Sequence record: OZ035819.1
Source of the DNA: Kagunavirus LM02P1
Direction: 5' to 3' (one strand)
DNA length: 43,420 bases
The translations under genes were made by a program, and so were the position numbers. Below the pieces are notes generated by a model. It was not told the origin of the DNA and did no database searches. It saw only the letters and a program-made list of their open reading frames with translations. This document shows, in pieces, positions 8,297 to 41,512 of the stretch (positions are counted from its first letter, which is position 1; the number at the start of each line of letters is the position of its first letter).

Positions 8297-8449
8297 ATGA
8301 ATATCGTGCGCCGCTTGCTCTGTACCCACAAATACCGAACGGTAAGAGTCGCATATGGTGACGAGATAATTGGTAGAAATTACAAGCGATATTGCCAAGA
8401 GTGCACAAAATGCGGCGCAATCAGATACGTGGGTGGTGATAAATGTTAA
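8297..8449 (+). CDS. small Cys-rich protein (50 aa; CxH...CxxCxxC)
   Basis: ATG at 8297 with RBS GAGGAA; stop overlaps ATG of next gene (ATGTTAA). Confidence 0.3.
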   Translation: MNIVRRLLCTHKYRTVRVAYGDEIIGRNYKRYCQECTKCGAIRYVGGDKC

Positions 8450-26214: not shown

Positions 26215-26346
26215 TCATTCCAGCACCCACAGATAAATTGCGATGAACATGCCCAGTACGGCGGCCATCATGCTGTATTGACCCTCGTGGCAGTAGACAC
26301 CGGCGGCGAATCCCGCCAGTACCGCGATAATAAGTTTACTTAGCAT
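26215..26346 (-). CDS. small membrane protein (43 aa)
   Basis: ATG at 26346 overlapping the 3' end of the polymerase gene; hydrophobic. Confidence 0.3.
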   Translation of the reverse strand: MLSKLIIAVLAGFAAGVYCHEGQYSMMAAVLGMFIAIYLWVLE

Positions 26347-28609
26347 AGCGGTACACCTCTTCCCCAGCCCATGTTAACGGGAACCCTTCAGCCCATTCAG
26401 GTAATGCGCATAGCAGGTCACCCATCTCTTTAACCGTGTACTCCGGCGTATCTGGCGTTTCAGCCACACATTCGTCGTGTACGTGGAGCACAATCGGGTA
26501 GCCCGCCGCCTCGACCGTCAGGAGTCCGTTAACTAGTAAGTCACGGCACAACGCCTGGATGATGTTTTCACACAATTTTCCGCCGTGGGTGTACAAAGTT
26601 GTCCACTGGCGGGTGGTCTGATTCTCACCCTGGTACTTGATGCGGACGTTAGTAGTGACACGCCCATCCTCGTCAGTTTCTTTAGTAACGCTCAGACCTA
26701 TGCCGGGGTATGACATGATGCGCCCCGACGGCAGTTCCACGCACAACCACCAACCCGGCACAAAGTTACCCTGTCTGTCTTTCTCTTTAGTACGCCAGAT
26801 GCGGATGGCTCTGTCGCCGTTAAGGCGTACTCGGGCCCCCGCCCAAAACTCTCGTCCCGGATTTCTAATGGCGGCTATCACCGAATCCTTAAGGTCATTC
26901 CAGAATTTCACTGTTTCCGGATGGGCTTCCCGCCACATGCGCTTAATGGCGTCACAGGTGCGCCAGACTTCTTTAGGCAGCACATAAGAGGCCCGTTCAT
27001 CTTTTTTACCAGGCTTTGGCGGGCGTTTAGCCTCCTGAATTCTGGCCCATTCGTAGCCACGGGCGGTAGCCGCCCAAATGTGGTCGGGGAACGTGCCCCG
27101 CATTGTCTCTGTCATTTTAAAGAGGTCCAGCCCGTAAGTTTTAGCCATAGTCATAAAAGCCCCTACGCCCCCCTCGTAGCCGAGGCCGAGTTCGCAACAT
27201 TTCCCGACCTGACGTAGGTCCTTACGGGTGGCTTTTAGTTCTACGGGGTCCATGCCGAACATCTTACCAGCTGTGGCGCAATAGATATCAATCCCCGCGC
27301 GGAACGTCTCAAGGGCGGACGTCTCCCCCGCCGTCCAGGCTAGCCCGCGCCCTTCCACGTTTGAGTAGTCGGCAACGAGCAACTTATTACCTTTTTCCGG
27401 GATGATGCAACTGCGGACAGTCGAGGCCGTTAGTTTAGACACATCGAAACGGCGATGCGCCCGGCCCTTTAAAAGCAAATTGATGCCAAATGATAGCGGG
27501 TTAAGCCTGCGGTTCCAGTCTTCGTCGGACTCCCACGGCTGGCGCACAAGTTTCTTTTCCTCGTTAGTCGGGTCGTCGTGGTAGTACCCGCGCGACAGGT
27601 TCTGCGGTTGGAACCCTTTACCCGCAAATCGTAAAGTGCGCTTTGCCCCACCGTACTGGATGCAACCGCGGCGGCGGCCGTCTTTGGACCGTCCTAGCAG
27701 GAGCGGTTTGTATTTTGTCGACGCCGTGGAGGCCGCGCCGAGGCGCATCTCAATGATTGTGCGCGCATCGTCAGGTAAGTCGTCGTCCTCTAGCAAACCT
27801 TCGAGCGTTGCTTTCTGTGCATTATAGATATTGTAGGCCGGTGCCAGCTCCCGAAGGATTGGCAGGAAGTCTTTACCCGTTAGCTTCCCGCCAAATTTAG
27901 CCCTGGCCTCGTTTTTTAGCTCTTGCTTGTGGCGTTCAACTGCTGCTACCGCCGCCTCAGCAAGAGCCGCATCAACAAAGAAGCCTCGGTCGTTGATTAA
28001 CTGGTCAAGTTCAAGTACACGGTCCTCGAAATCGGAGTTACCCCAACGTGGCAGCTTATGGAAGACTTCACGCATCGCTGTGATGTCGCTCACGGCGTAC
28101 TTGATGAACAGCGCCCACTCGTCCGGGTGCGTCTCCGCGGTGTAGCGGCGGATTTTGTAGTTCTTCGGCGTCGGTTTAGAAAAACGCTGAATCAGCGCCT
28201 TACCGCGTTTGTCTTTCGCATTGTCCGCAGATACGCCCAACACTTCGCACAATGCGTCAAGTGAACCCGGCAGCGCGTGACGAAACGCCCAAATCATCGT
28301 ATCAATGGTGTTGCTTACCGGAATATCAAAGCCCCAGCAGTGCTTCATGATGAGTCTGTCGAACATTGAGCCGTTGTGCCACACCATCTTAATGCGACTG
28401 TTAGGCTTAACCAGACGGCGTAACGCGCGGTGCAAATCCCCCGGCATGTCGCTGCCGTTGGTGCAATCCCACACCTGCACAGGCTCGTCGTCAAAAGCGT
28501 ATGTACAGATAAGGACTTCTGTGGTTGGGTGTTCGGCGTAAGCGTAGGAGCCGACTTTCTTTAAATCGGCTTCGGAGAATGTTTCAAAGTCAAGGTATAA
28601 GTAGCTCAT
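26336..28609 (-). CDS. family A DNA polymerase with 3'-5' exonuclease domain
   Basis: Exo I YLDFETFS; Pol motif A LLVADYSNVEGR, motif B RQVGKCCELGLGYEGG, motif C VLHVHDE; ATG at 28609 with AGGAAA RBS preferred over TTG at 28663. Confidence 0.85.
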   Translation of the reverse strand: MSYLYLDFETFSEADLKKVGSYAYAEHPTTEVLICTYAFDDEPVQVWDCTNGSDMPGDLHRALRRLVKPNSRIKMVWHNGSMFDRLIMKHCWGFDIPVSNTIDTMIWAFRHALPGSLDALCEVLGVSADNAKDKRGKALIQRFSKPTPKNYKIRRYTAETHPDEWALFIKYAVSDITAMREVFHKLPRWGNSDFEDRVLELDQLINDRGFFVDAALAEAAVAAVERHKQELKNEARAKFGGKLTGKDFLPILRELAPAYNIYNAQKATLEGLLEDDDLPDDARTIIEMRLGAASTASTKYKPLLLGRSKDGRRRGCIQYGGAKRTLRFAGKGFQPQNLSRGYYHDDPTNEEKKLVRQPWESDEDWNRRLNPLSFGINLLLKGRAHRRFDVSKLTASTVRSCIIPEKGNKLLVADYSNVEGRGLAWTAGETSALETFRAGIDIYCATAGKMFGMDPVELKATRKDLRQVGKCCELGLGYEGGVGAFMTMAKTYGLDLFKMTETMRGTFPDHIWAATARGYEWARIQEAKRPPKPGKKDERASYVLPKEVWRTCDAIKRMWREAHPETVKFWNDLKDSVIAAIRNPGREFWAGARVRLNGDRAIRIWRTKEKDRQGNFVPGWWLCVELPSGRIMSYPGIGLSVTKETDEDGRVTTNVRIKYQGENQTTRQWTTLYTHGGKLCENIIQALCRDLLVNGLLTVEAAGYPIVLHVHDECVAETPDTPEYTVKEMGDLLCALPEWAEGFPLTWAGEEVYRYAK

Positions 28610-28761
28610 TTCTTTTTCCTTAAATCTAGTGCCTTCGTTTCGCTGAGTCTTATTTTCATACAATCACGGCAAATCCACACATGCCGGTATCCGGCCCGGT
28701 ACTTATCCGCGTACCACGGAAGAGGTTTCATATAGCGATAAACGTGCTTACAGAAAAACAT
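28606..28761 (-). CDS. small Cys/His-containing protein (51 aa)
   Basis: ATG at 28761; CKH...CRDC; stop TGA overlaps the polymerase ATG (ATGA coupling); coordinates checked by hand translation. Confidence 0.3.
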   Translation of the reverse strand: MFFCKHVYRYMKPLPWYADKYRAGYRHVWICRDCMKIRLSETKALDLRKKK

Positions 28762-32675: not shown

Positions 32676-34943
32676 CTATTCCAAATCTTCCTCTGTCACT
32701 GTCAGCATTTCATTCGGTTCGTATATTGTCTTCGGAATCTTGTTATCCGTTATTCGGGTGTTCAGCCTGTAACGGCCTGGAATTATCTGATTGTTTTCGT
32801 CGGTCCCTGGCACAAGATAACCCGCCTCAACCATTTTCTTAATCTTCCCACGTTCTATGGCTTCTTTGGAGTTAAACGCCTTTGCGTTAGGGTCGGACTG
32901 TGCGAGCTTATTTGCCGCAGCTACTGTGATACCTTCGTTGCCATTGTAGGTTCCTTCCGCCAGTTCAAACGCCGCCAGTATCGTGGCCTCCGAACTGTTG
33001 ACGGCGTTCTCTACGGTTTTACGTACGTTTTCTTTACCTTCCTTTGTCAGCCCTTCTTCCCGCTCTTTCTCCTCATCGGTCTTGAATGGCTCGAATCCCC
33101 AAGGCATCAATACAAGCGCCTTGTGCGGTTCAGGCAGGTCGAGGTTTACGATTGTGCCGTATTCCTCGGTGGAACCGAGGAACTCAACCGCGCGGTACTC
33201 TTTCGGCGGAGGTGCTTCACGGAACTGTACCGACTCCAGCACCATGCCAACCGTCTTCTGTTGGGGGCCGTGCTTAAATTTCGAGTGGTATACGTTTATC
33301 TGACGGTCGGTTGCACGTTCGATTGTCAGTTCCACGTCGACACCCGCATACAGCGCCCCGCTGCCACGGGCTTTCTTTCCGCCCTTCGGGGTATGGTGGA
33401 CAACGCCTACCGCAGCTTTAGTCGCGTCGCGTACTTCTTTCAGGATGGCGATAACTTTACCCATACCGATCGCCGTTGATGAACTGTTCTCGTCGAACTT
33501 ATCAATCGTCAGGGCCAGCGTCTGGTTGAGTGTGTCGAACGCAACCATACCAATTGGCTCGTCGCCTGCAGTTTCGCGCATCAACTTAATCAGGTTTTTC
33601 AGTTTGCCGACTTCGCCCATGTCGATGACATGTACGTAATCTTTACCTTCCTCGCCATATTTAGCGGCTAGTGCATCAATACGGGTGCGTGTAGCGGCAC
33701 CGCCCTCGCCATCGATATAGAAATGGTGGCAACGCTGGGTATCCGCCCCCGCAAACCGGTATCCGGCGGCGCTGAGGTACATCATCCCCAGCGTATAGAA
33801 CGATTTGTACGTACCTGATTCCCCGACAATATCCCAGATACAATCTGACGGCATGTACCCTTCAACGACGAAATCCGCCTTTACTGGTTCTGGTAGCTCG
33901 TCCTCCTCTGAGTCATCATTGTCTTCCAGGTCGTCGAGGCTGCATGAAACTGATTCACGCGCACCCCAGCCGATAGCCTCTGCGACTTCACTGAATGGCA
34001 GCCCTGTAGCGTCACACGCATACTTCCACACCTCTTTCGGCGACATGCCCTCGGTTGCCGTGATGTCGGTGTCGTGAATCATGGTTACGTTAGGCGCTTC
34101 GTATCCCTCGCGCGGGAAGCACAACAGGAAGTCGTCCGGGCGTGGAGTCGGGTCGCTATAGTTTTCGGCGTGTTCTGGTGTGGCGGGCATCTTAAGGCCG
34201 CGTGGCGTCAAGATGCCGCCGTGCTCGAAGGCCAGTGCTTCAAACGCATCGGTAAACGCAGTGCGCAGTTCTTCCGGTATCTGGTAATCCGATGCGCTGC
34301 TCACCTCGTAATCCGGGATGCCTTCCAGTAACTCGCCGGGGTCAATCAGGTCATTGCGGCGCGACCAGATAACCTGAGAGCCAACCGGCGGCAGGTACAT
34401 CGGCTGGGACAGAGTAAACCCGCTGCGGTCCGCGCCCATGCCTTTGAAGAAGTGCTCCAGCAACCCGTGACGTACGCGGATGATGTCACCGCCTTCGACC
34501 GGGCGGGCCAGCGGCATGACGACGCGAAAGCGTGGAGACTCATCGGTATGGGATGCCGTGGTGTAAACGCACATGGCTTTACGGCCTCGCTTAACCAGGC
34601 GCACTGCTTCCTGGTACTCTTCCGGCGTTGCGCTGTCGAAGTCAAGATACGCCAGTGACGATTTGGTTACAGACGCGTCACAGCGATAGAAGAAGCCTTT
34701 ACGCGCATGCTTAAAGTCACCTGTTTCCGGGTCTTTTACGGTGCTGTGCGTTGAGTCGCACGCGGCAGTGATATACCCCGGCGCTGTCTTAGGGTTAATC
34801 CCGTCATGAACAGCATCAAGCGGCTGGATTAACTCTTTCAGGTCGTCCAGTGTTGCCGTATGTGTGGTTCTGACGTTTATATCCTTTTTCTCCGCCCGCG
34901 CGTTGCGACGGGACCACGAGTAGGATAAAATTACATCGGACAT
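32676..34943 (-). CDS. bifunctional primase-polymerase (AEP) / P-loop helicase
   Basis: 755 aa; AEP motifs AYLDFD and TTASHTDESPRFRVVMP; C-terminal Walker A GESGTYKS, Walker B-like MVAFD. Confidence 0.75.
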   Translation of the reverse strand: MSDVILSYSWSRRNARAEKKDINVRTTHTATLDDLKELIQPLDAVHDGINPKTAPGYITAACDSTHSTVKDPETGDFKHARKGFFYRCDASVTKSSLAYLDFDSATPEEYQEAVRLVKRGRKAMCVYTTASHTDESPRFRVVMPLARPVEGGDIIRVRHGLLEHFFKGMGADRSGFTLSQPMYLPPVGSQVIWSRRNDLIDPGELLEGIPDYEVSSASDYQIPEELRTAFTDAFEALAFEHGGILTPRGLKMPATPEHAENYSDPTPRPDDFLLCFPREGYEAPNVTMIHDTDITATEGMSPKEVWKYACDATGLPFSEVAEAIGWGARESVSCSLDDLEDNDDSEEDELPEPVKADFVVEGYMPSDCIWDIVGESGTYKSFYTLGMMYLSAAGYRFAGADTQRCHHFYIDGEGGAATRTRIDALAAKYGEEGKDYVHVIDMGEVGKLKNLIKLMRETAGDEPIGMVAFDTLNQTLALTIDKFDENSSSTAIGMGKVIAILKEVRDATKAAVGVVHHTPKGGKKARGSGALYAGVDVELTIERATDRQINVYHSKFKHGPQQKTVGMVLESVQFREAPPPKEYRAVEFLGSTEEYGTIVNLDLPEPHKALVLMPWGFEPFKTDEEKEREEGLTKEGKENVRKTVENAVNSSEATILAAFELAEGTYNGNEGITVAAANKLAQSDPNAKAFNSKEAIERGKIKKMVEAGYLVPGTDENNQIIPGRYRLNTRITDNKIPKTIYEPNEMLTVTEEDLE

Positions 34944-35505: not shown

Positions 35506-35868
35506 CCTATTGACAAAATAAAATGTAGCTGTAAAATCAACGTATCGAAGAGCTTTAGTTCAGAATTACTTAGAAACAATATTCTTAAGTCTCGGGTACT
35601 TAAAGCCCCGCCCTAAAGCGGGGCGCTAAATAGTACTCTTGGTAACGTTAGTATCTAAGTTTCCTCAAAGTAACAGCAAGTGGCAAGAAAGCCCCCGTCT
35701 ATTTAAATTTTACCCTCCTACATAAGCCACTGATAATTAAAAGTTTCTATAGATGCCGTAAGCAAGGTAGAGAGTACTTCACTCCGCTGGGGTGGGCTAA
35801 CGCCCACCCACTGCGTTGCGTACTCTTTTAAGAAACGAAAGAATCACAACGGCAACGTAACTATTCTC

Positions 35869-36769: not shown

Positions 36770-36792
36770 CTTACTATTTTACTGAGTGACTT

Positions 36793-36830
36793 ACGCTGCT
36801 ACACAGCAGCGTATCATTTTTCTCATTTTT
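36793..36830 (+). terminator. intrinsic terminator
   Basis: Hairpin ACGCTGCT-acac-AGCAGCGT followed by ATCATTTTTCTCATTTTT. Confidence 0.6.
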
Positions 36831-37122: not shown

Positions 37123-37251
37123 ATGAAAGATTATAGCGAAGTGACTTTAGGTGAGTTGCAGGGCGAGTACGAAGATATGCTCTACCCGTTCATCTGCGAC
37201 GGAGATTACAACGGCGTCTATAACGGAGTGAGCGAAGAATATGAACACTAA
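37123..37251 (+). CDS. small acidic protein (42 aa)
   Basis: ATG at 37123 after conserved leader/RBS. Confidence 0.3.
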   Translation: MKDYSEVTLGELQGEYEDMLYPFICDGDYNGVYNGVSEEYEH

Positions 37252-37975
37252 AAACGAAGTATTCGAATACCTGATTGACCAGCTATGGCATCAGGTAAAT
37301 AAGAAAGATGTCACATCTTTCAATGTGTCTGTGCGGATATCCGACCTTGATGAGGTCAAGCAGGTAATTCACAACCTACAGCAGCATATCGCTGGTAAGG
37401 ACGACGAAATACGTATGCTGAAAGACAGCCTACGGCAGCAGATGGCGAACAACCCCCACAAGCAGCAGTGCGAAGACCTGGCGCATGAGGTGCAGTCACT
37501 TAAGAATCAGTTACGTGATATGTCGGAATTGGTGGATGAGTTGATGGGTACAATAACGTTAATGAATGAAGACTTTGGCCGCGTAACAGGGCGGAGCGGT
37601 CCTTTACCTAAAGGGGAGAGCTACGTAGTAGGTGAGCACGGGCCTGAGCAATCCGGTTGCCGTAAGGGAGATACTCAGGAATGCGAGCACTCTTGGATTA
37701 TTATGCCTGGGTTGTTTCTTAGCGAAGGCAATCCGAACAACGTTCCTGGTAGTGAGTTATGCTGTAAATGTGGTAAGCGTGAGTGGGATGTTAAGGGATA
37801 TAAACCGAAAGATGATACCCAGGAATGCTCCTATAACTGGCGATTCGTTAATGGTAAGGCTCCCGCCGTATGTATTAATTGCGGAATGACTAAATCCAGC
37901 AAGTGTGAGCACGAATGGTGCTTTTACGATGGTGGTGCTTTGAAGATGTGCAGAATATGCGGGCTAAAGAAATGA
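37241..37975 (+). CDS. coiled-coil protein with three C-terminal zinc-ribbon-like repeats
   Basis: 244 aa; three units of C-x-H/Y-x-W ... C-x-x-C-G (CEHSW...CCKCG, CSYNW...CINCG, CEHEW...CRICG). Confidence 0.55.
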   Translation: MNTKNEVFEYLIDQLWHQVNKKDVTSFNVSVRISDLDEVKQVIHNLQQHIAGKDDEIRMLKDSLRQQMANNPHKQQCEDLAHEVQSLKNQLRDMSELVDELMGTITLMNEDFGRVTGRSGPLPKGESYVVGEHGPEQSGCRKGDTQECEHSWIIMPGLFLSEGNPNNVPGSELCCKCGKREWDVKGYKPKDDTQECSYNWRFVNGKAPAVCINCGMTKSSKCEHEWCFYDGGALKMCRICGLKK

Positions 37976-38175
37976 CCAGTATCTTATTTATCTGGGTACT
38001 ATCCGCAGGCCAGATGCACCTCGCGGCATCGGAAACGTTTTATTCTATGGAGGCGTGCCAGTCCGCGGCACGCGCAGCAGAGAACGCGCACTTCCTGTTT
38101 CAGGGTGACAAGCCCAACGATTCAGAGGTACGCGCTATCTGCTCACCTAAGCGACTCGGTAAACAGGAGAAGTGA
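37972..38175 (+). CDS. small secreted/periplasmic protein (67 aa)
   Basis: ATGA coupling; N-terminal signal-peptide-like ILFIWVLSAGQMHLAAS, two Cys in mature part. Confidence 0.4.
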   Translation: MTSILFIWVLSAGQMHLAASETFYSMEACQSAARAAENAHFLFQGDKPNDSEVRAICSPKRLGKQEK

Positions 38176-38176
38176 T

Positions 38177-38443
38177 ATGGTACAGAGATACGAGTTATCG
38201 GATAAATGGGAAGAGCCTAAGATGGCGAAGTATGACTGGGGTGATTATGTAGAGTACGACAGCTATAAGGAACTTGACGACTATTACCAGGAACGCATCG
38301 CCGATGCCAACGAGGAAATAGAGGTTCTCGTCGCAAGACTGGCGGAAGTAAACGCCGAGTTACAGAAATACAAAGACCAGTTCCCGGATTACGTCGAGTG
38401 CGCGAACTGTGGGTCAGTTACGCATGTGGAAGGGGTGGAGTGA
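38177..38443 (+). CDS. small acidic protein, MVQRY paralogue A (88 aa)
   Basis: ATG at 38177 with RBS AGGAGA; begins MVQRY; C-terminal CANCG. Confidence 0.45.
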   Translation: MVQRYELSDKWEEPKMAKYDWGDYVEYDSYKELDDYYQERIADANEEIEVLVARLAEVNAELQKYKDQFPDYVECANCGSVTHVEGVE

Positions 38444-38667
38444 TGGTACAGAGATACTTATTACAGGGTGGTTTAATAGGGCCGCACGATGAAGGTGATT
38501 GGGTAGGTTACGAAGACTACGCGGCGCTTGAGCGTAAGTTTGACTCGATATTAAACCTCCTTGTTAAACTAGATGATGATTTGGGTTACGGTAAGATACC
38601 TGATGAATATGCCTACGACAGAATCGGTGAGATTATCGAGAAGCACCAAAATGACCTTAGCGACTGA
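38443..38667 (+). CDS. small acidic protein, MVQRY paralogue B (74 aa)
   Basis: ATG at 38443 (TGATG coupling); begins MVQRY like the upstream gene. Confidence 0.45.
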   Translation: MVQRYLLQGGLIGPHDEGDWVGYEDYAALERKFDSILNLLVKLDDDLGYGKIPDEYAYDRIGEIIEKHQNDLSD

Positions 38668-38818
38668 CATCCTGAAAAACAGCGGCAAAGCGCCGCTGTC
38701 GCCACGTAAACGACATTTCAACACGCATCCGACGTATCTTGAATTACATGAGCGCCGGAAGACACCGGCGCAACGACTGGCTGAATATTGGAGAAAGCAT
38801 GACTACTATCGCGTTTGA
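38651..38818 (+). CDS. small basic protein (55 aa)
   Basis: ATG at 38651 overlapping the upstream gene end; K/R-rich. Confidence 0.3.
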   Translation: MTLATDILKNSGKAPLSPRKRHFNTHPTYLELHERRKTPAQRLAEYWRKHDYYRV

Positions 38819-39236
38819 CGGTAAGACGATGGCCTGCGACACCCGAGTTACCGCGGGCGACACGTATTTCAACACAGATACCAAGATATACGAGAGTGAT
38901 GCTTATGTTATCGGGGTCGCCGGTGACGCGGGCTGTGGTACTATGCTTGTTCAGGTATCAAATATCCTGACCATGCGTACCTATGAGTATAACTTTAAGG
39001 CTATTGTATACGAGAAGCACACCAGACGTGTTTTCTATGTGTCATTCGATAAAAGCTGGGGGTCAAATAGCTGCGTTGTCCCAATTGTTGATAGCTACTT
39101 CGCCGTCGGTTCAGGGGCTGATTTCGCGCGCGCAGCTATGGAATGTGAGTATTCCGCACAGGGGGCAGTGGCCGTTGCATCGAAGTTTGACACTAACACC
39201 GGCGGCAAGATTATTACCAAACAACTATTAGGATAA
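38799..39236 (+). CDS. HslV/proteasome beta-subunit-like Ntn hydrolase
   Basis: ATG at 38799 with RBS GGAGA; after Met the protein starts TTI (HslV starts TTIVSV); VTAGDTYFNTDTK, YVIGVAGDAGCG and FAVGSGADFARAA parallel HslV segments. Confidence 0.55.
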   Translation: MTTIAFDGKTMACDTRVTAGDTYFNTDTKIYESDAYVIGVAGDAGCGTMLVQVSNILTMRTYEYNFKAIVYEKHTRRVFYVSFDKSWGSNSCVVPIVDSYFAVGSGADFARAAMECEYSAQGAVAVASKFDTNTGGKIITKQLLG

Positions 39237-39295: not shown

Positions 39296-39604
39296 TTGGA
39301 TAAATTTACTGAAACTGTGACAGGCTGGCTTCTCGCTGCCGCGCTAGCCGGAGGGGTTATCGGACTACGGCAACATAAGTCCGTTATTTCTGGGCCTATA
39401 GACGGCTTCTGCTTTATTGCAACTGGCTTCACTTGTGCCGTGTTTGGTGCACCTCTCGCGGCTCAATGGTTTGGCATTACGGGCGACCGTGAAATCGCAG
39501 GCCTGGGCTTCATTATCGCTATTCTCTGGATGCCTATCTATTCCCGCCTCTCTGGTATTGTTGCCGGAGAATATATCGCACGTCGAGGAGGCCCAGATGA
39601 ATGA
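39296..39604 (+). CDS. holin
   Basis: 102 aa, three hydrophobic helices, charged C-terminus; immediately upstream of lysozyme. Confidence 0.6.
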   Translation: MDKFTETVTGWLLAAALAGGVIGLRQHKSVISGPIDGFCFIATGFTCAVFGAPLAAQWFGITGDREIAGLGFIIAILWMPIYSRLSGIVAGEYIARRGGPDE

Positions 39605-39869
39605 GTTATTCTGGTTCGGCGGTATGCTGGCAATCGGAGGCGCATCGCTGTTTAATGTATATCATCCCAGCGTTGACGACGGGCTATTTGGCCGGGTGCT
39701 CTATATCCTGACCGCTATTGTCTGCGCCGCCGGGTGTATCCACCTGTTACAGGGCAGCATGTCACCTACGCTGCCTGAGACATTAATCACATTAGTTGCG
39801 CTGCGTCAGATTCGTCATGCGTGGCTGTCATACGGAGGATATAAGCGTGTCTCGAAATATTTCAGATAA
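39597..39869 (+). CDS. small membrane protein (second holin-like / lysis regulator, putative)
   Basis: ATG at 39597 with RBS GGAGG, overlapping holin stop (ATGAATGA); two hydrophobic segments. Confidence 0.45.
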   Translation: MNELFWFGGMLAIGGASLFNVYHPSVDDGLFGRVLYILTAIVCAAGCIHLLQGSMSPTLPETLITLVALRQIRHAWLSYGGYKRVSKYFR

Positions 39870-40335
39870 TGGATTGCATTTTACCGCTGCGTTCGAGGGG
39901 TTCCGCGGAACTGCATATCGCGCTACACCGAACGAGACGTACCTGACTATTGGTTACGGTCATTACGGGCCGGATGTAACGCCAGGCAAGACCATCACCC
40001 CGGGGCAAGGCCTCCTGTTACTAAATCGCGATATGGCGAAGGCCGTAGGCGCGGTTGATGCAGCAGCACACCATTCACTGACACAGGCACAGTTCGACGC
40101 TGTGTGCGACCTGGTCTATAACGCGGGTGCGGGCGTGATTGCCGCTACCACCGGAACCGGTAAGGCGCTGCGCTCCGGTGATGTTGCGACGCTGCGGGCT
40201 AAGCTGGCGCTGTTCATCAACCAGAACGGCAAACCGTTGCTCGGCCTGCGCCGCCGTACAGCCGGACGGCTCGCACTGTTCGACGGTAAACCGTGGCAGG
40301 AGGCTGAGGCTATTGGGCGCGCGGTGAAAGGTTGA
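39847..40335 (+). CDS. endolysin, GH24 phage lysozyme
   Basis: GTG at 39847 after GGAGG; ISDNGLHFTAAFEGFRGTAYRA...YLTIGYGH (catalytic E, TIGxGH) and C-terminal RRRTAGRLALF; frame open from 39796. Confidence 0.75.
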   Translation: MSRNISDNGLHFTAAFEGFRGTAYRATPNETYLTIGYGHYGPDVTPGKTITPGQGLLLLNRDMAKAVGAVDAAAHHSLTQAQFDAVCDLVYNAGAGVIAATTGTGKALRSGDVATLRAKLALFINQNGKPLLGLRRRTAGRLALFDGKPWQEAEAIGRAVKG

Positions 40336-41107: not shown

Positions 41108-41280
41108 TGACTAACAACGAATACGAGAAACTCAGCGTAGAATCCGCGACTGGTGAATCTGAAATAGTGTGGATTGACGCCCACATAGAGCACCACTTAC
41201 GGCAGGTAGATAAACTTATGGAGCGCCGCCGTGAACTGATTAACCGTTTCAATCTGAACAAAGGTGACACCAATGCCTAA
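41107..41280 (+). CDS. small protein (57 aa)
   Basis: ATG at 41107 overlapping upstream stop; below ORF-track cutoff. Confidence 0.3.
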   Translation: MTNNEYEKLSVESATGESEIVWIDAHIEHHLRQVDKLMERRRELINRFNLNKGDTNA

Positions 41281-41512
41281 AATCACAATCGCATCGCTGG
41301 AGCGCCGTATTCTGGTGCTTGAGTCAGAGAAACAGACGTTAGGAGGGCAATTGTCGATTAACGGTGAATTTCAACTGGAGGCGTTTAAGATGTTGCTTGA
41401 TAAGTTGAAAGCGGACGAAAAGCCTTGCGAGCACGATTACTACCTACATGTGGTTGGTGGATTACATCGGGCCACGTGCATCAAATGTGGTAAAGCGTAT
41501 GGAGTCGCCTGA
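41273..41512 (+). CDS. hypothetical protein with C-terminal CxxC...CxxC
   Basis: ATG at 41273; C-terminal CEHDYYLHVVGGLHRATCIKCG. Confidence 0.4.
   Translation: MPKITIASLERRILVLESEKQTLGGQLSINGEFQLEAFKMLLDKLKADEKPCEHDYYLHVVGGLHRATCIKCGKAYGVA

Follow-up and report, generated by a model that had tools for sequence, protein, structure and literature searches.

The 43,420-nucleotide (nt) stretch of DNA analysed here (the window; Kagunavirus LM02P1, sequence record OZ035819.1) contains on its plus strand a gene (positions 37241..37975) whose 244-amino-acid (aa) product, as judged from the list of open reading frames (ORFs) and a profile match to the family phrog_6094, consists of a helical stalk followed by three mini zinc-finger-like modules with the putative ligand order Cys-His-Cys-Cys (CHCC). 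The end of this gene overlaps the start of a second gene, which encodes a 67-aa protein (37972..38175, plus strand). We find that the internal triplication in the 244-aa protein is one state of a combinatorial module system, in which members of the family carry from zero to four modules drawn from approximately 27 types. What is new here is the existence of these combinatorial module arrays, the near-invariant partner gene that accompanies them, and the loss of a His in module 2. Tentatively, we favour a reading in which the 244-aa protein would be a cytoplasmic adaptor, whose constant stalk carries exchangeable zinc modules for binding to a host target that varies.

Three Cys/His modules in the C-terminal half of the 244-aa protein

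A preliminary description of this DNA had reported three Cys/His modules that recur approximately every 35 aa. The modules themselves were borne out, as the motif is found at three sites on the plus strand, namely module 1 (type A, a long form; 37682..37774; C148-E-H-S-W, 21 aa, then C174-C-K-C177-G178), module 2 (type C; 37826..37885; C196-S-Y-N-W, 10 aa, then C211-I-N-C214-G215), and module 3 (type B; 37904..37963; C222-E-H-E-W, 10 aa, then C237-R-I-C240-G241). The three are mutually similar, with local-alignment z scores against shuffled sequences of 7.3 for modules 1 and 2, 9.3 for modules 2 and 3, and 4.2 for modules 1 and 3, and the motif was never seen more than once when the C-terminal 110 aa were shuffled 200,000 times (64 single occurrences). 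A regular period did not hold up: because the modules start 48 and 26 aa apart, the figure of 35 aa is only an average. An AlphaFold2 model of the 244-aa protein, built from a 120-sequence alignment, places a short β-hairpin between the Cys/His knuckles of every module (strands 152-155 and 171-174 in module 1, 200-203 and 206-211 in module 2, and 226-229 and 234-237 in module 3).

Conservation in relatives, which had been proposed as a check on the modules, speaks for them, since their Cys, His, Trp and Gly positions are either invariant (C196, W200, C211, C214, G215, C222, H224, C237, C240, and G241) or at least 90% conserved (C148, H150, W152, C174, C177, G178, and H198) in a 40-sequence alignment of the family. 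When 40 diverse short modules are aligned with one another, only the C, H, C, and C positions are invariant. In module 2 of the protein studied here the His is replaced by Tyr198 (codon TAT, 37832-37834), where nearly all relatives have His (CAT or CAC); among the best 120 relatives His gives way to Tyr in only two cases, this one and module 1 of the homologue P0022. One transition accounts for Tyr198, which costs the module a putative metal ligand; either the module is degenerate or the sequence is in error at this point. We infer from the ligand pattern that the modules each bind one zinc ion, which given Tyr198 would amount to two or three per protein here.

The preliminary description also called the modules zinc-ribbon-like. 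In layout, as small putative zinc-binding hairpins, they resemble zinc ribbons; members of a curated Pfam zinc-ribbon family they are not. Zn_Ribbon_1, DZR, and Zn_ribbon_3 were among the Pfam zinc-ribbon families considered for the C-terminal 111 aa, none of which matched at E ≤ 10; with the 244-aa protein no zinc-ribbon model came even to E = 0.01, and homologues scored 12-16 bits against Pfam zinc ribbons with cut-offs of 25-27. The term is thus an analogy, because there is no such match and because the first knuckle is C-x-H and not C-x-x-C.

Relatives rebuild the module array

A search of 5.8 billion proteins for homologues of the 244-aa protein yielded 933 clusters, and the best 120 proteins were used to count module architectures. 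Both the source names and searches of phage records point to Guernseyvirinae phages, and the family was found only there; the lengths of the 120 listed proteins range from 143 to 291 aa. Two modules are present in 60 of these proteins, three in 36, four in three, and one in six. Clustering of 281 modules at approximately 55% identity gave 27 types in 43 architectures, the commonest of which is A-C-B, the arrangement found here (19 of 120). The suggestion that the protein is distinguished by an unusual internal triplication therefore fails as a statement about a fixed feature, as there are at least 43 arrangements of approximately 27 types and some relatives have no module at all. The match of the 244-aa protein to phrog_6094, a family whose function is unannotated, falls into three stretches (E 5.5e-50, 169.9 bits), because extra modules and an N-terminal helical insert interrupt the alignment with the 142 positions of the profile.

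The extent to which the head of the protein can be replaced is illustrated by the homologue from the Salmonella phage Kenya-K22, a Jerseyvirus (locus L040, 680..1204), which keeps the N-terminus and the helix and then ends in a Cys-free domain of approximately 60 aa (…EVEFRSGIVAIGEAKDYLWSIDNDNWDIVKYRVIK) that has no Pfam match; the ATGA coupling of its gene to the 67-aa gene is retained. The GRNsp27 protein has a single module, behind a different N-terminus and coiled coil. The 244-aa gene is the most variable gene that we measured in its block of small ORFs.

Two observations at the DNA level bear on how modules might be exchanged. A repeat search identified a 15-nt direct repeat on the plus strand (93% identity), copy 1 of which, GATACYCAGGAATGC, encodes D-T-Q-E-C before module 1 (37670..37684), and copy 2 of which lies before module 2 (37814..37828). 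The peptide K-x-D-T-Q-E usually precedes modules, and DTQE stands before 62 of those counted. It is plausible that the 15-nt repeat provides microhomology, or a recombination handle, for the gain or loss of modules.

The ratio of nonsynonymous to synonymous polymorphism per site (pN/pS) within module types is 0.26-0.40, compared with 0.07 in the conserved segment of the helix (33 loci). These values indicate that the modules are functional and that their diversity comes mainly from shuffling, not from decay. They also bear on a different view of the modules, namely that they are not metal sites but structural spacers, redox-active or disulfide units resembling extracellular Firmicutes repeats, or drifting remnants in a recombination hotspot that have no specific function. 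An exhaustive phmmer search of 1.84 billion representatives with the C-terminal 110 aa returned 35 proteins, comprising the family and long Firmicutes-type surface proteins, so that similarity outside the family is confined to extracytoplasmic tandem repeats (E 1e-9 to 1e-4); the loss of the His in module 2 here and in module 1 of P0022, together with the modest model confidence for the modules, would also suit a non-metal role. Opposed to these points are the invariance of the four ligand positions in the 40 short modules, their conservation at 90% or more family-wide, the purifying selection evident from the module pN/pS, and the integrity of the ORF across more than 900 sequence clusters. 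Moreover, cytoplasmic disulfides are unlikely because the 244-aa protein has no export signal. We regard a non-metal role as very improbable.

A constrained stalk and a flexible linker

The ATG start codon of the 244-aa ORF is supported by the N-terminus that it gives, MNTKNEVFEYLIDQL, which agrees with the conserved N-terminus of relatives (MSNKNEVFEYLIDQL). Residues 1-16 (MNTKNEVFEYLIDQLW; 37241..37288, plus strand) form an N-terminal peptide in which V7, E9, and Q14 are invariant and K4-I12 are at least 90% conserved in the 40-sequence alignment. They are followed by an optional helical insert (residues 17-65; 37289..37435, plus strand) that the short family members, roughly half of the relatives in that alignment, do not have. 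A conserved long helix comes next (residues 72-116; 37454..37588, plus strand), for which AlphaFold2 gives predicted local distance difference test (pLDDT) scores of 84-92 and the alignment gives near-invariant columns, including an invariant C77-E-D and the segment L-x2-E-V-x-S-L-K-N-Q-L-R-D. This helix is likely to be an oligomerisation or docking segment. The linker that leads to module 1 (37589..37681, plus strand) is modelled with low confidence, with a pLDDT below 50 at residues 128-146 (disordered), and ends in P-E-Q-S-G-C140-R-K-x-D-T-Q-E; its residues E136-E147 are at least 90% conserved.

The preliminary description had placed a long coiled coil ahead of the modules. The helical nature of the N-terminal half was upheld by the model, which contains helices at residues 4-21, 33-69, and 72-116 (pLDDT 82-92 across residues 41-110). 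The coiled coil is plausible; the coiled-coil matches in Pfam and the PDB were sub-threshold only. No hydrophobic segment was found in the 244-aa protein (maximum Kyte-Doolittle value 0.35 over 19 aa).

Cys residues also occur outside the modules. C77 (37469..37471) does not vary in the 40-sequence alignment and is conserved to at least 90% in 120 homologues, and C140 (37658..37660), within P-E-Q-S-G-C-R-K, is at least 90% conserved. These residues could be ligands of an additional metal site, or of one between subunits.

A nearly invariant partner gene

The stop codon of the 244-aa gene (TGA, 37973-37975) and the start codon of the 67-aa gene (ATG, 37972-37974) overlap in the sequence ATGA (37972..37975, plus strand), as had been reported. 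Of 38 related loci, 31 keep the 4-nt overlap and four more have a 1-nt overlap, regardless of which module the upstream protein ends in; three of the 38 give spurious distances, which stem from frame extension errors. The conservation of the overlap among relatives indicates that the two genes form a pair that is, by the arrangement of their codons, predicted to be translationally coupled.

The 67-aa protein has a hydrophobic N-terminus and an invariant C29 and C57, and matches phrog_3766 over almost its whole length (E 4.2e-36, residues 1-66 on profile positions 1-66 of 66); the function of this family is also unannotated. In 37 of 39 loci a homologue lies directly 3′ of the variable gene. 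Across loci the partner is mostly 92-100% identical, whereas the upstream protein is 31-75% identical, and at 90% identity the partner falls into 50 clusters as against 933 for the 244-aa family. There are 474 phage records with the partner and 312 with the upstream protein. The partner has a pS of 0.30 and a pN of 0.016 (pN/pS approximately 0.05), which marks the 67-aa ORF as a genuine gene.

The pair also occurs in variant forms in nature. In locus L008 (3190..3279) the 67-aa gene is truncated to 29 codons, in locus L039 (2501..2830) a deletion fuses the upstream coiled-coil part to the final 18 codons of the partner, and in locus L038 no 67-aa homologue was detected. These variants indicate that the gene pair is probably accessory.

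An in-frame ATG located 15 nt before the 67-aa start (37957..37971) would add MRAKE to the protein, and some databases annotate this 72-aa form. The ATG is incidental, since the conserved codons for Cys and Gly in the upstream gene create it (A-TGC-GGG). Starts giving a 72-aa or an 86-aa protein, either of which would supply a basic n-region, were rejected, as there are in-frame stops just upstream in loci L003, L014, L027, and L033.

Is the 67-aa protein exported?

The N-terminus of the 67-aa protein had been described as signal-peptide-like and the protein as secreted. Part of this stands, in that there is a hydrophobic run, ILFIWVLSAG, followed by small residues. The Kyte-Doolittle values of the run (2.63 over 9 aa, 1.38 over 19 aa) suggest that it is sufficient for an h-region and too short for a membrane helix, and small residues occupy positions -3 and -1 of putative cleavage sites among the variants (L17-x-[A/G]19, A18-x-[S/A/T]20). 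A basic n-region does not stand, as the protein starts M-T-S and has no Lys or Arg before the run, and both conservation and a β-hairpin model speak against secretion, which we therefore consider doubtful.

These observations matter for an alternative account of the pair, in which a cytoplasmic zinc-ribbon protein is co-expressed with an exported peptide, the two genes being linked by translation alone. Sec cleavage near residue 19-20 would release a 47-aa, disulfide-stapled periplasmic product that might act, for example, in superinfection exclusion or in the timing of lysis. In addition to the h-region strength of the run, this account can draw on the helix-breaking G13 followed by small residues at 18-20 in all variants, on a Glu after the putative cleavage site, on the two invariant Cys in the 'mature' part that could pair as a disulfide, on a lipobox-like L-T-A-C in one variant (P0175), and on the position of the gene approximately 1.1 kb upstream of the holins. 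It has to contend with the lack of positive charge before the run, for which the longer MRAKE… start offers no remedy given the in-frame stops. Furthermore, comparison with the distant homologues Kenya-K22, GRNsp27, and P0190 gives 75-96% identity over the N-terminal 24 aa and 51-60% over the rest, which is unusual for a cleaved signal. AlphaFold2 predicts a ββαβ fold made up of a β-hairpin (residues 3-11 and 14-23), a helix (26-45), and a strand (52-59) with a pLDDT of 81-87, and thereby puts residues 3-23 in the core (pLDDT 83-87). BFVD models of a 53%-identical homologue from a Klebsiella phage also have the ββαβ fold (TM score 0.84-0.87), so that BFVD confirms the fold within the family; beyond it, BFVD shows weak similarity to other uncharacterised phage proteins of approximately 60 aa.

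The placement of the N-terminal strands in the core of the model and the strong N-terminal conservation thus argue against a cleaved signal. On balance we lean towards the 67-aa protein being a small cytoplasmic domain; that it is a cleaved exported peptide is appreciably less probable, and membrane association accounts for what is left. As an explanation of the pair as a whole, the exported-peptide account seems to us rather doubtful.

A candidate adaptor for a variable host target

The favoured reading, a cytoplasmic adaptor, can be set out as follows. The constant part of the 244-aa protein comprises the N-terminal peptide and the constrained long helix, joined by the flexible linker to a variable head, which here consists of three independent β-hairpin modules of 20-31 residues, each with a CHCC ligand set in which, in the middle module, Tyr takes the place of His. 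Related phages rebuild the head by module shuffling and leave the stalk, the ATGA junction, and the 67-aa gene nearly fixed. The helix would form a homo-oligomeric coiled coil, and the 67-aa protein, its synthesis tied to that of the stalk through termination-reinitiation, would be a small folded cytoplasmic partner, possibly in complex with the stalk. The constant part would then assemble the complex and the zinc modules would recognise a host-dependent target, whether host protein or nucleic acid, in an accessory role in host takeover or counter-defence and not in a core phage function. An adaptable host-interaction role of this kind is favoured because the stalk and partner are frozen and the head is rearranged, because the block of genes is accessory, and because the genes are occasionally lost in nature; a core regulator is less likely.

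The latter possibility nevertheless deserves consideration. P2 Ogr and Mu Com are small phage zinc-finger regulators, and on their model the zinc modules would bind phage or host DNA or RNA, with the coiled coil dimerising the protein, to control, for example, lysis or late genes. Nucleic-acid-binding proteins often carry Cys/His modules in tandem on a helix that oligomerises, and the gene, which has a strong sigma-70-like promoter (35510-35537) upstream, belongs to a rightward unit that continues into the lysis genes. The best structural neighbours of the protein, although not significant, are transcription-associated, as the Foldseek list is headed by the multi-zinc-ribbon proteins TFS4, Rpb9, and TFIIB. 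The C-terminal half is mildly basic (isoelectric point 8.1, charge +2), a point in favour of such a regulator that is tempered by how weakly positive the net charge is. Against such a role, core regulators are normally conserved, whereas here the head is the most variable part and is Cys-free in Kenya-K22. No Ogr/Delta, Com, or DksA/TraR model matched, and there are natural variants in which the partner is lost or the two genes are fused. We therefore judge a nucleic-acid-binding regulator to be unlikely.

A bolder form of the host-interaction idea is that the pair is a modular counter-defence device, in which the stalk and the 67-aa partner would bear CHCC 'warheads', each aimed at a separate host factor, for example an immune effector or sensor, and would be retargeted by recombination at the D-T-Q-E-C junctions, as a counterpart of fast-evolving zinc-finger arrays. 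We offer this as speculation with a low prior claim on belief. Against the PADLOC-DB defence and anti-defence profiles there was only coiled-coil noise, with E values of at least 9e-4.

Several points weigh against the adaptor reading. Hypervariability fits an arms-race role without proving one. Zinc binding is deduced only from the conservation of the ligand pattern, and the model confidence of the modules is modest (pLDDT of approximately 51-69 for modules 1 and 2 and 77-82 for module 3). The N-terminus of the partner also fits the h- and c-regions of a signal peptide, and export would exclude a cytoplasmic complex. Searches of Pfam, NCBIfam, and PADLOC with both proteins, the C-terminal half, and homologues gave only coiled-coil noise and generic CxxCG knuckles. 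Neither a phmmer search of PDB sequences with the 244-aa protein and a profile of 40 modules nor a Foldseek search of the PDB with the full 244-aa model (best E 0.85) gave a significant match, and a literature search found no publication on the 244-aa/67-aa gene pair.

Database labels attached to homologues proved to be of little help. Two homologues bore precomputed tags (PF28409 and PF08941) that a rescan of P0045 and P0098 did not reproduce, and the names 'putative tolA-binding protein', 'cell division protein', and 'lactocepin' are coiled-coil artefacts.

Genomic setting and significance

The structural half of the window is approximately 90% identical at the DNA level to Kagunavirus phages of E. 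coli such as Snoke and fFiEco03, and the region around the 244-aa gene gives patchy matches only, in approximately 310 Guernseyvirinae records. The gene lies within a rightward block of small uncharacterised ORFs that has a leftward helicase/primase gene (32676..34943) on one side and, on the other, a gene for an HslV-family peptidase, two holin genes, and an endolysin gene. A terminator-like hairpin is found at 36792-36813. The ORF immediately 5′ of the 244-aa gene (42 aa; 37123..37251, plus strand; phrog_35344, E 3e-32) overlaps its start by 11 nt, and is 95-98% identical in some relatives and approximately 41-44% identical or undetected in others.

On the 3′ side of the 67-aa gene are two plus-strand ORFs that overlap by 1 nt (38177..38443 and 38443..38667). 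They are tandem paralogues, since both start MVQRY… and they have a D-W-x-x-Y-x-x-Y stretch in common. The first of them (88 aa) has a C-terminal C-A-N-C-G and a Pfam Gad1 match (E 0.013) that is below the cut-off and is probably coiled-coil noise. They are followed by an HslV-family peptidase-like ORF (38739..39236, plus strand; phrog_1040, E 1.5e-37) directly 5′ of the two holin genes (39296..39604 and 39601..39869, the latter within the frame beginning at 39417), and by the endolysin gene (39796..40335). Rfam and tRNA scans of the window gave no match, and minus-strand ORFs beneath the 244-aa gene, none longer than 51 aa, were rejected as unsupported.

Guernseyvirinae phages, including Kagunavirus and Jerseyvirus, are in common use for therapy and biocontrol of E. 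coli and Salmonella, and their small-ORF block is wholly unannotated. The swapping of whole mini-domains on a frozen stalk with a frozen partner is a pattern typical of proteins that face a changing host target. Kagunavirus isolates are reported in the BASEL study to differ in how sensitive they are to the Old system (10.1101/2024.09.12.612763). If the modules are units of specificity, the architecture could help to explain or predict how isolates differ in host range or in sensitivity to defence, and C-x-H-x-W…C-x-x-C-G, for which there is no Pfam model or solved structure, would become a small, defined binding domain. Should the gene prove dispensable and free of phenotype, it is merely another hypothetical phage protein.

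Comparison with known systems

The families phrog_6094 and phrog_3766 have both their gene order and their occurrence in Guernseyvirinae (Salmonella and Escherichia phages) in common with the pair described here. Within the window there are three further ORFs with a single module each, so that the module is a recurrent phage mini-domain. One (82 aa; 41264..41512, plus strand; phrog_9023, and weakly phrog_6094 with E 0.005) combines a coiled-coil-like helix with one C-E-H-D-Y…C-I-K-C-G module. The others, both of phrog_7696, have one C-x-H-x-Y…C-x-x-C module and lie among the structural genes (50 aa; 8297..8449, plus strand) and just upstream of a 775-aa ORF at 26336..28663 on the minus strand (51 aa; 28606..28761, minus strand). 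Stand-alone C-x-H-x-[WY]…C-x-x-C proteins of this kind (phrog_9023, phrog_4188, phrog_7696) differ from the 244-aa protein in that they have a single module and belong to other families, whose function is unannotated.

Zinc ribbons, including the tandem ones of TFS4/TFIIS and Rpb9, resemble the phage modules in having two knuckles that flank a β-hairpin, which in the phage modules is modelled at a pLDDT of 51-82, as well as a C-x-x-C-G second knuckle and tandem units, but have a C-x-x-C first knuckle where the phage modules have C-x-H-x-W. The CHC2 zinc finger of DnaG-type primases (zf-CHC2) is, like the modules, small and β-rich with ligands that run Cys, His, Cys, Cys, and its motif, C-x2-H…C-x2-C, sits within a domain of approximately 90 aa; the 244-aa protein has no Pfam match to zf-CHC2 and no attached primase catalytic domain. 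DksA and TraR, which combine a coiled coil with a C4 finger and act in the secondary channel of RNA polymerase, are alike in their long helices and C-terminal finger-like element. Their finger, however, is C-x2-C-x17-C-x2-C, whereas that of the phage protein is CHCC and repeated. A DksA/TraR reading was rejected, as there is no Pfam match and many family members lack the putative hairpin's first helix; because that helix is optional, there is no conserved antiparallel coiled-coil tip.

The Firmicutes-type repeats recovered by the exhaustive search (P0133, P0137, P0139, and P0140; E 8e-9 to 6e-4, pairwise BLASTP E 3e-7) have the form G-H-x-W-x3-[AT]-C-x2-P-K-T-C-x2-C-G-x-T-E-G and share with the phage modules the H-x-W, the 15-residue spacing, the P-x-x-C-x-x-C-G, and the tandem layout. 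They differ in being extracellular, after a signal peptide or membrane anchor, and in having their ligands shifted to H, C, C, C. In P0133, P0135, P0137, P0139, P0140, and P0146, up to approximately ten or more 24-aa repeats stand beside SH3_3, polysaccharide deacetylase, or DUF11 domains. There is no Pfam model of this repeat, with C1_1 matches sub-threshold only, and its likeness to the phage modules may reflect either homology or convergence. The 244-aa gene belongs to a catalogued but uncharacterised family, and its architecture is a variation on known zinc-finger and coiled-coil designs.

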